Below are positions 25,101-37,100 of a DNA stretch of 64,000 nt, in pieces. The position numbers were made by a program. Source of the DNA: Escherichia coli (lineage in GTDB: Bacteria > Pseudomonadota > Gammaproteobacteria > Enterobacterales > Enterobacteriaceae); the NCBI RefSeq assembly GCF_003991155.1, contig NZ_CP031293.1. One strand, written 5' to 3'. The first letter of the stretch is position 1. Every line of letters begins with the position of its first letter.

Positions 25101-28100
25101 AGATCATGAAGTGGTCGCCATTGATATCCAGCTTCATGCCACGACGTCGATAGAAGATCTGTTGCGATTATTAAAAGGTATGGCAGGGGTGAAAGGTGTT
25201 TCAATTAGCTAATCTGTATAGTTATTTATTCGCAGGAGTACCAGTGCGGTACTCCTGTTGGTTTTAATGATCGAGGACGATCAGTGGTGAATGGTTGGCA
25301 GGATCTTTAAGTACGGTAATATCCGCGCCGTAGAGCATGGTCAGCGCCTGCTGTGTCAATACGTCCTGCGGCTTACCATTTGCGATAACCTTTCCTTTTT
25401 GCATTAATACAACACGGTCTGCATAACGCGCGGCAAGATTTAGATCGTGCAATACGCAACAAACATTGAACTGCCGTTCGTGAACTAACTGGCGTAATAA
25501 ACGAAACAAGTGCTGCTGATGGTGAATATCCAGCGCCGAAGTTGGTTCATCAAGAAATAACCATTTCGGTGAGGGAGTAGGTTCCCAGAGTTGTACCAGC
25601 AGGCGCGCTAATTGCACGCGCTGTTGTTCACCACCGGATAATTGCCGATAGTCGCGGTTTGCTAACGCCTGACAGTCACATAACGCCATTATTTGTGCTG
25701 TTTCATTATCCTGATTACCAGTGCGATGCGGATGCCGCCCCATCTGGATAACTTCTTGTACGCTGAATGGAAACGCCATGTGGCTATTTTGACGCATCAC
25801 GGCCCGGTGTTTCGCCAGTTCAGTAATCGACCATTCATTTAATGGCTTATTAAACAACCGACATTCGCCGCTATCAGGTTGAAGATAGCCGGTTAGCTGG
25901 CGAAGCAGCGTAGATTTTCCCGCACCATTAGGGCCGAGGATGGCAACAATTTCCCCACCGGGAAAAGTCAGCGAGACATTATCAGTCAGACGCCGCCCCT
26001 GAAGGCTATAAACCAGATTCTGGGCGCTGATCATGTGATCCTCCGGTTGCGCAGAATCAACCACATAAAATAAGGGCCACCAAGCAGGCTGGTTAATAAT
26101 CCCACGGGCATTTCTGCTGGCTGTACCAGCGTGCGGGCAAGCGTGTCTGCCATCAGCAATAAACAGGCTCCGGCGAGGGCGGAACAAGGGATTAGCCAGC
26201 GGTGATTTGCCCCGGTAGTCATGCGAATCAGATGCGGGATCACCAGGCCAATAAAGCCGATAATGCCGCTTACCGATACGGCAGCACCAACGAGCAGTGA
26301 GCTCACTAACAGTAATTGCTGGCGTTTACGCTTCACGTTCACGCCGAGGTAGTGGGCTTCTTCATCACCGAGCTGCAGTAAATTCAGCGTTCCGGCGAGA
26401 CAAGTTGTTGCGATAATGGCCGGTAGGATGAATGAACTGGCAACCAATAACGTCGGCCATTGCGCCTGTCCAAGATTGCCCATCATCCACAATGTGAGTT
26501 GTCGTAGCTGCTGCTCATCGCCGATATAGCTCAGGATGCCGATCGCTGCGCCGCACAGGGCATTGATGGCGATACCGGCGAGTAATAATTGCATCATGCT
26601 GCCATCGCGATGGCGCTGCGTGATGAGAAAAATGATGGTGCAGACCACTAAACTTCCGGCAATGGCAAACACCATTTGCTCATAGAGCACCAGCACCACT
26701 GGGAAGGAGAAGGGCAGCACAATAGCAACGCCAACCATTAATGCAGAACCGCTACTGACGCCAAGTAATCCAGGGTCAGCCATTGGGTTGCGAAAAAGCC
26801 CTTGCATAATTACCCCGGCGGTTGCCAACGCTGCACCTACCAGCACCGCCAGCAAAACCCGTGGTAGACGAATATTGAGCCAGATATCGCGGTATTCCTC
26901 ATCAAAAAGGGCATCAAAACTGATCTTTAACGCTCCCTGACTGGCACCAAACAGCACCAGAGCGAGCAATAATAGTGATAGCCCCATAAAGACCCTGGCG
27001 GAAGAGAGTGAATCCTTGAGCACGCAAAACTCCGTTACGACATTACGGCGCGGACATACCGCGCCGGGGGATCACGCCGGTTTCAGGTCCGGTTCAATCA
27101 GACTGTAGACCTGCTGGTTAAGTGCTGGCGCATTTGCCAGTTCATGGATATGTGCGGCGACATCGGCACGGTGAACAAAACCATGACACTCCTGATTTTG
27201 TATCCGTTGTGCTTTGCCCGTTGCCGCACCATCAAGCAGACCGCCAGGGCGGAGAATGGCATAATCAAGCTGGCTGGTTTGCAACCAGCTTTCCGCCAGC
27301 GTTTTTTCCCGTACCGCCTGACCAAACGCAGCCTTTGCCCGCTCTGATAAAAACGGCCAGCTATCGCCGCATCCCAAAGAGGTCACCAGAATCATGCGAC
27401 TGATGCCAGCCTTCTCGGCCTCGTCAATCACTGTTCTGTGCGCCAGATAATCCTGAGCTCCGCCCATTGTTGAGATGATAAGCGCATCCGGGCCAGCTGC
27501 GCGGCAAGCAGCCGCGACTACGCTGGCATCACAGGCGTCGCCTGTAAAAACCTTTACGCCTTGTTGCGCCAGTTTCGTGGCGGCATCAGCATGACGAATG
27601 ACAGCAACGACCGGACGTTGTTCCGCCAGCGCCAGTTCAAGCGTTCTGGCACCCACACCTTTTCCGCCTGCGCCAAAGAGTAGCCACGGCGTCATCAGGC
27701 GTGTTCCTTTAACGATGCTGCCAGAGCATGGAAGGCGCTGACCTGTTCGCTCAGGAGCTGACGATGGTCATCCCTGCCGAGGAAGATTTTCAGCATTGCG
27801 CTGCCTTCTTTGTTGAAAAAGAGAATGGATGCGGTGTCCATGCCCATAAATTTACGTTCGATCAAGGCAATATGTGTGCAGTTTTCTGCTTTGATATGCC
27901 CGGACATGCCGTGCTTTCCGCGTAGGTTGAAATAGCCGTGGCGGTGGAAACCCGAAGGCAGTTCGCCGCTAAATTCGAGGATGACATCGGCAGTATGTAC
28001 TAACGTGGTGACGTTGCCCCATTCGCAGACGGTATCCCAGACAGTATCGAATTTATCACCTGACACAACAGTCGGAGAGGGCAGATTTTTCACTACCTCC

Positions 28101-34100: not shown

Positions 34101-37100
34101 CCCATGATGGTACGCAGATAGCGCAACTTTATGGTCAACGTACAGAAGGCGAACAGGAGCAAGCGCAATGGCGTAAGCAAATTGCTTCGCTGATACCGGA
34201 AGGCGTTACTGCATAACGTATAATTAAAGGGAGGTCTGGCTATTTATTGCTGGGCCTCTTTATATTAATCAATCGATCACACCAGATAATCAATATGCTG
34301 ATGGCGTACCAACTCATTGATCCGCTTAAGATTGAGGATCATCATGATATTGTGTTTATGGCAGTAGAACGTTTTTAGCGATATTTTCAGTTTCTCCAGA
34401 ATATCTTCCGTTGTCATTTGATTCGCAATGCAGCTCAGAACCTGATGCTGCTTGCGCGAAAGGGACACATCCGCTTCAGGCACAGAGCAGTAACTGCCAT
34501 TGATGAGTGCGACAAAGTCGATGATGGTGATAGTTCGCGGAACAAAGGTCACCGGTACTTTCCCCAGGCAGCGTTTAATATTAAAGGGAGAGAAAATAAT
34601 CACATGGACAGGTTTTAATCGTTCAATTTGAGTGAGCAAATTAGAATGAAATACATTATTCATTAATGTATCAATAATGACGAAGGCATGCTGATGCAAC
34701 ATTACGTCGATCTCTTCTTCGTTCTGTATATGAACGACATTACCTTTACTCAGAATGTTTTTCATCGCAGTGAAGAACATCGTATCCCTGGTAATTATAA
34801 GAAACATAACCGACTCCTGGTGCGGACATTAACTTTATAATCAGTTTGCCAAAGGTAATTAACAGGACAGGGCTTATAATAATAATTAGCTGGCTGTGTA
34901 TTAATTTGATGTAATGCATGATGCAGATGCTGAGAAAGCATCTGCATCTTTCGGTGGTGTTATTTGACCAGCTCAGGTGTTACCTGACTCACCGCGTTGG
35001 TGTAGTAAGGCGCACCCCAGCCCGGTTCCGGCCAGAATGCACCATAGCCGTAATCCCACAGGTTATAGGTGGTATTAACCACTTCTCTCAAATGCCACAC
35101 CTGGATGCCCTGCATATTCACTTCGAGGAAGTTATACGGGACTTTATTGATAAAGCCAGGTTGTTCACCCTGAATGGTACCGAGGATGGTAACAAAGTGA
35201 TTACGATAGTTCACTGGATCAAGGAAGCCGCTTTGTCTGGCGAGCAGTCGGCCCTGATAGTTGGCTTCAATATCAGGCTTCGCATAGCTATCCAACGGTA
35301 ATACAGCGATTTCTAACAACGTATCCGTTTTGCCATTGATAACGTTGATAACCTTCCCACCAAAGCGCGCTTGTTGGCCAACATATAACCCCGGCTGGTT
35401 ATGAACAGCAACAAAACTTTTTTGAATATCAGGTTGGTTATTGCCTTTGATATTTTGCGGAATTGAACTACATGCGGCAAGCAAAAATGAAAGGCTGAGG
35501 ATGAGTGCACCTTTTGTCATGTTCATGTTACTATCCTTATCAACAAATATTAAAACCATAATAGATATTTCTTTATAGTTTTCATCTGATTCTGAGGCGA
35601 TATGCCTGATAGTAACGTAAACCTGTCTGATGTTTATATCCCTTCTGTTTAGTTTAATTCTGTTAATTTTGGGGCGTGACATGAGTATCCATCGCCCCAT
35701 AAAATAGCCTTTTTTTAAAGGTGCATAAAATCTATTTTTATTCAATGATTATAAAGTGCTAATGTTCAATATTATGGGATTATATTCTGGTAATGATTTG
35801 ATAAGCGAATTCTTTTGCCAGTTGGTGTTTCTATTTCCACCCCATAATTTATAGTTTTTTCATCAGGTAGCGATCTCTTTAAATAAGGTGCGTATGACAT
35901 TTTTTTAGGATGAAACGTATCGTGTTGAAATATTTCGAATTGATATTCAGACATTTGTGACCATTTTTTAATTCTATTGTATCGAGAGGGTGTTGTAAAA
36001 TTTTTAACTTGCTTGTAACATTCTTTTTGGAATTCTTTCTGATATTTTATTATGTCGTTGTATGAAAGATTGTTTACCCTGGTCTCTAATAATTCTATTA
36101 TTGTCGAAGCAATTTCCGCTTTTGCTCTTAAAGAGTTGTCATTAATGGTTAATAATGTTGAAAATAAACCATTGATTTGTTTGTCAACATATTGTTCATC
36201 TTTATGTAAATTTGTGATGGGGTTTTCCTTATGTGAAAAAATAGTATCAAATAAATTTGCGTCAGTGAAGTTTACATTAAGTAGATCTTCGAAATAAAAC
36301 CTTGACAAGGTTAGAACGAACCCGGACAGGTCCTGTCCTGTCATATTGAAATCAATAAAGTTGGTTCCAGCAAAGACTTTCATCCTGTTTTCATTTTCAC
36401 TGTGCTCAATATACAACCTTGTCATTTTTTGGTACAAGCTTTGAATATCTTTTATATCAGTTGGTAAATCAGTTCGTTGCCCAGAAAAATTTTTATTTTC
36501 GGAAGAAACGGTTTGGACACTGAATCTTACTGGTATTCCCTCTTCTACGAGAATTTTAGTTATGATTGGCTTATTGGGCTTAGGATTAAAGACAACAATG
36601 ATTTTAGATTCAGAGTTTTTATTCTTTTCGTATCTAATGTTATTAATCTGATTAAGTATTGATTGTGTCTGTTGCGTAAGTGGTGTCGAACTTATCGTTT
36701 CAATGTTATTAATAAGTTTTACAAGTTGAGCCACAACTTTTGAGTAGTCTGCATTTGTATATGTGGTGTTCGTGTGGCACGCATTAATTTGTTGGAGTTG
36801 TTGTTGCGCTAAATCAAATTGTTCAGCGTTATATCCTTCTTCAGACAATGAAAAATTAATGGGTTGCTGTTCTTCCTGATTATCACAAGGCCACATCGGT
36901 GTGTCTGGTGTTTTAACATTGTCGGTATCTGTTGTGCGGTTATAAATATCGCCGTGATATGTATTTATCATACCTGGGGTAAAGTCAATTGACATAACAT
37001 TCCTTATTGTTCATCTATTTCGCTAAATTTTTGTAAATCGAAGAATTAGAGCAGGAATGGATTTTTTCTACGCGGAAATAAACACAATGCGTCATATCTT

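Follow-up and report, generated by a model that had tools for sequence, protein, structure and literature searches.

Does the chu (shu) heme uptake locus, which separates yhiD from dctR in some Escherichia coli chromosomes and is missing from that place in K-12, mark an insertion made in one lineage, or is it one of two old states of the same site? The question is raised by a stretch of 64,000 nucleotides of E. coli DNA (NCBI RefSeq assembly GCF_003991155.1, contig NZ_CP031293.1), here called the window, which spans the acid fitness island in full (gadA to slp) and includes, within it, a chu block of 9,058 bp (window 25219-34276) with eight genes between yhiD and dctR. It is nearly certain that this block is the canonical chu (shu) locus, intact, at its standard yhiD-dctR site, and one of two old alleles there. 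Comparisons of junctions and of related species suggest that the site carries either the 9,058-bp chu block or a filler of about 36 bp, and that homologous recombination through the acid-island flanks probably reshuffles these two old alleles. The presence of chuA is scored routinely in phylotyping, and for extraintestinal and enterohaemorrhagic E. coli (EHEC) the chu system has been studied as a factor in fitness and virulence. The difference from K-12, taken as that of an old recombining two-allele site rather than of a lineage-specific insertion, bears on the phylogenetic reading of chuA presence or absence.

Published work already covers the chu locus, where it sits in the acid fitness island, how it is regulated, and its enzymology; the block is real but ordinary. 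The position between yhiD and dctR (yhiF) in the slp-gadA acid fitness island is described (PMC5799925, PMC9144400), and both the co-location of chu with this island and the odd distribution of the locus are already in print, in Wyckoff 1998, as that paper is cited elsewhere, and in the xenoGI paper of 2018 (PMC5799925). New detail is limited to the orthology of the filler and to the chimeric alleles. For the source strain, the block shows no more than a chu-positive type in which the chu allele is B2-like and the chuA leader is of the uropathogenic E. coli (UPEC) type.

Gene content and identity of the chu block

The gene map given below is the one on which three sources agree: a listing of open reading frames (ORFs), NCBIfam scans, and RefSeq annotation of an E. 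coli chromosome near-identical to the window. The mechanical ORF list gave longer, TTG-started forms of chuV and chuT, in place of which the annotated ATG starts were adopted. Coordinates are those of the window.

24565-25212, plus strand: yhiD, left flank
25264-26034, minus strand: chuV, heme ATP-binding cassette (ABC) transporter ATPase, 256 amino acids (aa) (NCBIfam NF010068 equivalog, RefSeq)
26031-27023, minus strand: chuU, heme ABC transporter permease, 330 aa, GTG start (RefSeq ShuU/ChuU, HmuU match)
27072-27695, minus strand: chuY, NADPH-dependent anaerobilin reductase, 207 aa (PDB 5FFQ, 5GUY; function from PMC10114669)
27695-28189, minus strand: chuX, cytosolic heme carrier, 164 aa (TIGR04108 HutX, PDB 2OVI)
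28202-29539, minus strand: chuW, class C radical S-adenosylmethionine (SAM) methyltransferase, anaerobic heme-ring opening, 445 aa (TIGR04107 rSAM_HutW)
29559-30473, minus strand: chuT, periplasmic heme-binding protein, 304 aa (RefSeq, PDB 2R7A/2RG7)
31157-33139, plus strand: chuA, TonB-dependent outer-membrane heme/hemoglobin receptor, 660 aa (TIGR01785, PDB 9DHE/9DIR/3FHH)
33188-34216, plus strand: chuS, cytoplasmic heme-degrading/heme-binding protein, 342 aa (PDB 4CDP, 1U9T)
34277-34807, minus strand: dctR, right flank

Six genes (chuV, chuU, chuY, chuX, chuW, and chuT) are read from the minus strand and two (chuA and chuS) from the plus strand, which gives two divergent units (chuA-chuS and chuT-chuW-chuX-chuY-chuU-chuV), with an overlap of 4 nt between chuU and chuV. 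Each of the eight ORFs is full length and ends in a single terminal stop codon. A preliminary description made from the sequence alone had named these eight genes, their order and strands, and their place inside the acid fitness island, all of which the ORF map, NCBIfam, and RefSeq bear out; the extent that it gave, 25213-34276, lies within 6 bp of the extent obtained by junction alignment. It had also placed the source strain among chu-positive lineages, whether E. coli or Shigella dysenteriae. The first of these holds and the second does not: RefSeq records are 100% identical to the window over 24000-36000, and E. coli 2016C-3878 (NZ_CP029747.1) differs from it by 2 mismatches over the 57.5 kb directly compared, both outside the block.

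The products of the transport genes are identified by family models and solved structures. ChuV scores 397 bits with the NCBIfam heme ABC ATPase equivalog NF010068 (cut-off 261), ChuU matches HmuU of Yersinia pestis (PDB 4G1U, E = 1e-128), and ChuT matches a bacterial periplasmic heme-binding protein (PDB 2R7A/2RG7, E = 1.5e-161), which we take to be ShuT. ChuA scores 589 bits with the heme-receptor subfamily model TIGR01785 (cut-off 317) and matches the heme receptor structures 9DHE/9DIR and ShuA (3FHH) at E = 0, with 1,428-1,445 bits. ChuS is identical at 335 of 342 positions to the O157:H7 ChuS structures 4CDP/1U9T (E = 1e-228, 7 differences) and keeps the heme ligand His193.

The presence of a radical-SAM branch formed by ChuW, ChuX, and ChuY, as first proposed from the sequence, is confirmed by the matches of its three members. 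ChuW scores 570 bits with TIGR04107 rSAM_HutW (cut-off 400) and carries the CxxxCxxC [4Fe-4S] motif as CATHCTFC at residues 67-74; its solved relatives are distant only (e.g., HemN, 1OLT, E = 9e-26). ChuX scores 210 bits with TIGR04108 HutX (cut-off 110) and matches the ChuX structure 2OVI (E = 1e-105), and ChuY matches the ChuY/ShuY-like structures 5FFQ/5GUY over its full length (E = 5e-133). ChuS, ChuY, ChuX, ChuA, and ChuT are thus near-identical, over their full length, to characterised Chu/Shu structures, and no evidence was found that contradicts the identification of the chu locus. In published work, ChuW carries out anaerobic ring opening, ChuY reduces the product with NADPH, and ChuS serves in heme storage and aerobic degradation (PMC10114669).

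Two alleles at the yhiD-dctR site

Junctions were aligned between the window and K-12, N96, O157:H7, ATCC 25922, and HH45. In K-12 MG1655, yhiD and dctR are 41 bp apart, which bears out the adjacency given in the preliminary description. Sequence common to K-12 and the window ends at ...TAATCTGT (window 25218) and resumes at the dctR stop codon (34277); between these junctions, which define the ends of the block, K-12 has a 36-bp filler, GTGGCAGCGTAGCCAGACTCACCGTAAGCCTGAAAT, and the window has 9,058 bp. No chu gene was matched at the K-12 locus.

The chu block is present in 2,238 of the 5,426 complete E. coli genomes (41%), O157:H7 included, at 96.4-100% identity, and the equal ends expected of chu-positive genomes were found: 2,234 E. 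coli genomes carry the full-length block (query 1..9057/9058) with identical ends. The K-12-type empty site occurs in 3,179 of the same genomes, and six E. coli genomes match the empty-site query at 90-95% identity, the band of the N96 type described below. The 2,238 chu-positive records hold 2,239 chu places, with a median of one each and all of them chromosomal, and every copy with flanks inspected sits at yhiD-dctR. Membership of a chu-positive lineage, as claimed for the source strain, therefore stands, but its equation with pathogenic lineages does not, since the carriers make up 41% of the genomes and include the reference strain ATCC 25922 and wastewater, livestock, and pet isolates.

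The age of the two states was approached through outgroup loci, collected by a DNA-pattern scan with a conserved slp motif (one genome per species). The order slp-dctR-chuS(-chuA) is collinear across the same right junction in E. albertii, in "E. coli" E69 (~90%), and in Escherichia sp. MOD1-EC7003 (~95%), and the hairpin in the chuS-dctR spacer is orthologous in these three and in O157:H7 and ATCC 25922. In all three chu-positive outgroups the divergence of chu is similar to that of the flank; E. albertii is 85.3% identical to the window in chuS and 84.2% in dctR, and in MOD1-EC7003 both genes are about 96% identical. The empty site likewise has an outgroup representative in Escherichia sp. 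E1V33 (~86%; flanks 84-88%), where a 37-bp filler (L017 8512-8548) shares 22 of 36 positions with that of K-12. A second type of empty site is found in E. coli N96, whose filler (L003 1646-1687) is far more diverged from that of K-12 than are its flanks (97-99% identical to the window). The chu-positive junction in E. albertii and the orthologous filler in E1V33 together indicate that both alleles predate E. coli. N96, with an empty site, nevertheless encodes the DctR protein of the window; flank haplotypes are therefore not tied to chu state, which indicates recombination.

A third and chimeric allele is present in two of the 5,426 complete E. coli genomes. In HH45 (L006 7854-8186) and HH97 (L022 3784-4119), yhiD is followed by chuV, chuU, and only the 3' part of chuY, which runs straight into the 36-bp filler of K-12 type and then dctR; this corresponds to window 27072-27369 joined to 34277. 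The flanks of these chimeras are K-12-like (0-4 mismatches per gene), whereas the chuVU segment is B2- or window-like. The HH45/HH97 allele is best read as a probable product of homology-facilitated illegitimate recombination between chu-positive and chu-negative alleles, and it shows directly that the two alleles meet and recombine.

Two derivations of the filler from chu sequence were considered and rejected. As a chu-derived deletion scar, it has no match in the window at three or fewer mismatches and no convincing likeness, by eye, to the ends of the island. As a remnant of chuY, suggested by HH45, in which truncated chuY abuts the filler, it fails because the window chuY continues differently after ...CCAGCTATCGCCG; the HH45 junction is for this reason a chimera and not the ancestral sequence.

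One explanation of these patterns, offered tentatively and at somewhat less than even confidence, is that presence or absence of chu, with boundaries identical to the base, is a trans-species dimorphism older than the split of E. coli and E. albertii, kept by selection that alternates between niches (host-associated versus other) and reassorted by recombination in the flanks. If such a dimorphism exists, the HH45 and HH97 chimeras are direct footprints of allele exchange. Published analysis with xenoGI reported chu inside the acid fitness island in both O157:H7 and E. albertii and concluded that the distribution requires either insertion and clean deletion or transfer and gene conversion (PMC5799925).

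A clean deletion alone, with chu ancestral to E. coli and lost from the common ancestor of phylogroups A, B1, and C to leave the K-12-type state, is an unlikely explanation. It agrees with the chu-positive state that E. albertii and two further Escherichia lineages show at the same junction, and insertion followed by clean deletion is raised as one possibility in the xenoGI paper (PMC5799925). A deletion creates no sequence, however, and the 36 bp of the empty site are absent from chu-positive alleles: the K-12 filler has no match at three or fewer mismatches anywhere in the chu-positive window, so the empty state is not a simple deletion scar. The homologous filler in E1V33 and the more diverged one in N96 argue that the empty allele is itself old, and the shuffling of flank haplotypes relative to chu state (e.g., N96, empty with the DctR protein of the window) also speaks against a single deletion in one ancestor.

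Very doubtful is the model implicit in the preliminary description, in which the yhiD-dctR site was ancestrally empty and the strain's own lineage recently acquired a horizontal island by insertion there. The block is missing from K-12 and from 3,179 of 5,426 genomes, there is a step up in guanine plus cytosine (GC) content against the immediate flanks, and the filler is not derived from chu, so that insertion into, or replacement of, a filler-type site is the simplest origin at some point in time. The higher GC content claimed for the block relative to the AT-rich acid-island genes beside it is real: the block has 50.5% (coding sequence 51.7%), gadE..yhiD 39.5%, dctR..slp 42.7%, and the whole window 48.6%. 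The E. coli genome average is about 51%, however, and the atypical base composition belongs to the acid-island flanks, not to the block, which gives no ground for reading it as alien DNA.

Signs of mobility were also sought. The annotation of the block includes no integrase, recombinase, or insertion sequence (IS) element, no tRNA lies within window 20000-40000, and a repeat search found no end-to-end terminal repeat of the block. No phage copy of the block was matched and no true plasmid copy was found in PLSDB, where the only two matches were 4.9-Mb records. Alleles of chu are 1-3.6% apart between phylogroups, like the flanking core genes, and E. albertii shares the right junction at ~84-85% identity. 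Given this junction and the phylogroup-level divergence of chu, any insertion predates E. coli and was not lineage-specific. A "recent" insertion event is thus largely refuted, and insertion as the polarity of the K-12 difference, which the preliminary description had assumed, is not established in view of the chu-positive junction in E. albertii and the filler in E1V33.

Two candidate traces of mobility were discarded on inspection. The sequence TATTTATT, which occurs near both ends of the block (25225 and 34241), was considered as an att-like repeat and rejected, as it is missing at the right end in ATCC 25922. The apparent plasmid carriers NZ_CP141089.1 and NZ_CP134663.1 (4.9 Mb) are chromosomes, filed as plasmids, that carry the chu block.

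Several points weigh against the reading of the block as an intact heme uptake locus and one of two old alleles. The antiquity of both alleles is proposed from one genome per outgroup species, and from E. albertii at the right junction only; transfer of either allele between species could mimic antiquity; and the original direction of change would be either a gain into an empty acid island or an arrival together with that island. The function of the block in heme uptake is presumed from near-identity to studied orthologues. Lastly, a thermometer in the 5' untranslated region (5'UTR) of chuT, as reported in S. dysenteriae, receives no support from folding here: the predicted fold of this region is no better than that of shuffled sequence (z = +1.3).

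The acid fitness island of E. coli is described in forms of 22 kb and 13 kb (PMC9144400). The slp motif scan also returned matches in Citrobacter spp. (L007, L009, L010, L013, L014, L018, L019), where a slp homologue ~72% identical stands near an mdtE-like sequence. These Citrobacter loci have no BLAST match to the window genes from hdeD to dctR, and may preserve a simpler arrangement that preceded the acid fitness island.

Regulatory sequences and proposed working of the system

The intergenic regions of the block contain the following predicted elements, in order along the window.

25232-25258: terminator-like hairpin between the convergent yhiD and chuV, 11-bp stem plus T run (consensus scan; putative function)
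30497-30515 and 30503-30521: predicted overlapping Fur boxes at the chuT promoter/5'UTR, with 3 and 4 mismatches, respectively
30828-30856, plus strand: chuA promoter-like site, -35 TTGATC, -10 AATAAT (consensus scan)
30848-30866: predicted Fur box at the chuA promoter, 2 mismatches, best in the window
30866-31156, plus strand: long chuA 5'UTR, ~291 nt, UPEC/B2-type allele
31128-31159, plus strand: FourU RNA thermometer (shuA/chuA) over the chuA ribosome-binding site (Rfam RF02597)
33145-33164, plus strand: hairpin in the chuA-chuS spacer, 8-bp stem (terminator-like consensus match)
34217-34276: chuS-dctR spacer with a GC-rich hairpin; it closes the block on the right, directly beside the dctR stop codon

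The top three 19-bp matches to the Fur consensus in the whole 64 kb all fall within the 683-bp chuT-chuA spacer. The best of these, at 30848-30866, overlaps the -10 element of the chuA promoter-like site, which implies a chuA transcription start near 30866 and hence a leader of 291 nt, as published (PMC9002310). On the opposite side, the box at 30497-30515 covers exactly +1..+19 if chuT is transcribed from 42 nt before its ATG; the experimentally verified Fur site of shuT agrees in position, in its 3 mismatches, and in the 42-nt distance from transcription start to ATG (PMC5458455). The iron regulation that had been claimed for the block is to this extent supported, by predicted Fur boxes at both divergent promoters.

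The thermometer match, at 60.1 bits, exceeds the Rfam gathering score of 58 and agrees with the consensus at each of its 32 positions, and in the predicted FourU hairpin UUUUCC is paired with the Shine-Dalgarno sequence GGAGAA. The chuT-chuA spacer is 99.9% identical to that of ATCC 25922 and 88.5% to that of O157:H7, the genes being 95-98% identical to those of O157:H7. Divergence from the O157 allele clusters in the central part of the chuA 5'UTR (window 30875-31060), whereas the Fur boxes and the last ~100 nt of the 5'UTR are invariant between UPEC/B2-type and O157-type alleles. The 42-nt chuT 5'UTR is conserved in sequence across the compared alleles, and the hairpin between yhiD and chuV is conserved in the O157, ATCC 25922, and HH45 alleles. 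The difference between the EHEC and UPEC chuA 5'UTRs is described as functionally relevant, the leader is regulated by CyaR and Rho, and chuAS forms one transcript (PMC9002310).

Two further observations concern the chuA leader. An ORF of 61 aa within it (30871-31056) is dismissed as a chance ORF, the O157 allele breaking the frame by a 1-nt indel. In Escherichia sp. MOD1-EC7003 the chuA 5'UTR contains an insertion of ~127 bp (L016 ~165-290; ...AAGTAAGTGATTCGGGTGAACG...), which presumably resembles an intergenic repeat of the enterobacterial repetitive intergenic consensus/intergenic repeat unit (ERIC/IRU) type.

That the chu cluster is present but decayed or non-functional in the source strain is scarcely credible: the acid-island regulator gadX in the same window is split by IS1, so local gene decay does occur, but the block has eight full-length ORFs with single terminal stops, none of them flagged as a pseudogene in the near-identical RefSeq record; ChuS retains its His193 ligand and ChuW its cluster motif; and promoters, Fur boxes, and thermometer are intact.

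The proposed working of the system is taken from the literature on near-identical proteins, the present analysis contributing sequence features only. Under iron limitation, Fur would leave its boxes at the two divergent promoters, and its release would allow transcription of chuAS and chuTWXYUV. Melting of the FourU hairpin in the chuA leader at host temperature would expose the ribosome-binding site. Heme would then cross the outer membrane through TonB-energised ChuA, be carried in the periplasm by ChuT, and be pumped into the cytoplasm by ChuUV. In the aerobic cytoplasm it would be bound or degraded by ChuS; without oxygen it would be passed from ChuX to the radical-SAM enzyme ChuW, whose opening of the ring would yield iron and anaerobilin, the latter then being reduced by ChuY with NADPH.

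Related loci and other features of the window

The chu loci of O157:H7 and of UPEC (CFT073/ATCC 25922 type) have the same eight genes, order, strands, ends, and yhiD-dctR site as the window. The block is 96.7% identical to that of O157:H7 and 98.6% to that of ATCC 25922, with identical Fur boxes and FourU thermometer. In comparison with O157:H7, the middle of the chuA 5'UTR in the window is of the UPEC/B2 type, and there are few substitutions (e.g., 7 of 342 residues in ChuS versus 4CDP).

The shu locus of S. dysenteriae type 1 has its founding description in Wyckoff et al. 1998, as cited in later papers (PMC5799925, PMC9002310). The published shuT Fur site coincides exactly with window 30497-30515 and the shuA thermometer with 31128-31159, and ShuA (3FHH) and the heme-binding protein 2R7A are near-identical to ChuA and ChuT of the window. 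The likeness is drawn from published sites and proteins, and the hosts differ (Shigella versus E. coli here).

More distant relatives are found in other genera and in genomic contexts other than that of the window chu. In the hmu/hem locus of Yersinia, HemS matches the window ChuS at E = 6e-151 and HmuU matches ChuU at E = 1e-128. Family models of HutW and HutX, from the Vibrio cholerae hutWXZ locus, match ChuW and ChuX; V. cholerae has HutZ instead of ChuY and has no ChuS homologue (PMC10114669).

Beyond the block, annotation transferred from NZ_CP029747.1 indicates that gadX, an activator of acid resistance, is split by IS1 at window 13881-15481, with gadX fragments at 13881-14006 and 14753-15481 and the IS1 transposase coding sequence at 14038-14735. 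The small RNA (sRNA) GadY, beside the split gadX at 15493-15606, is intact. An intact ORF of 407 aa at 35772-36995 (31-36% GC) is yhiS, which in K-12 is a pseudogene split by IS5; the ORF is 89-93% identical to K-12 and more diverged than its neighbours. Between arsC and yhiS, a segment of ~1.6 kb (37303-38916) with a permease and an ArsR/SmtB-family regulator has no K-12 counterpart. Rfam matches in the window include two AgrB antisense RNAs near dinQ (41308-41391 and 41539-41623, minus strand) and the ES205 sRNA upstream of gadE (21386-21457, minus strand), all of which are expected residents of the region.

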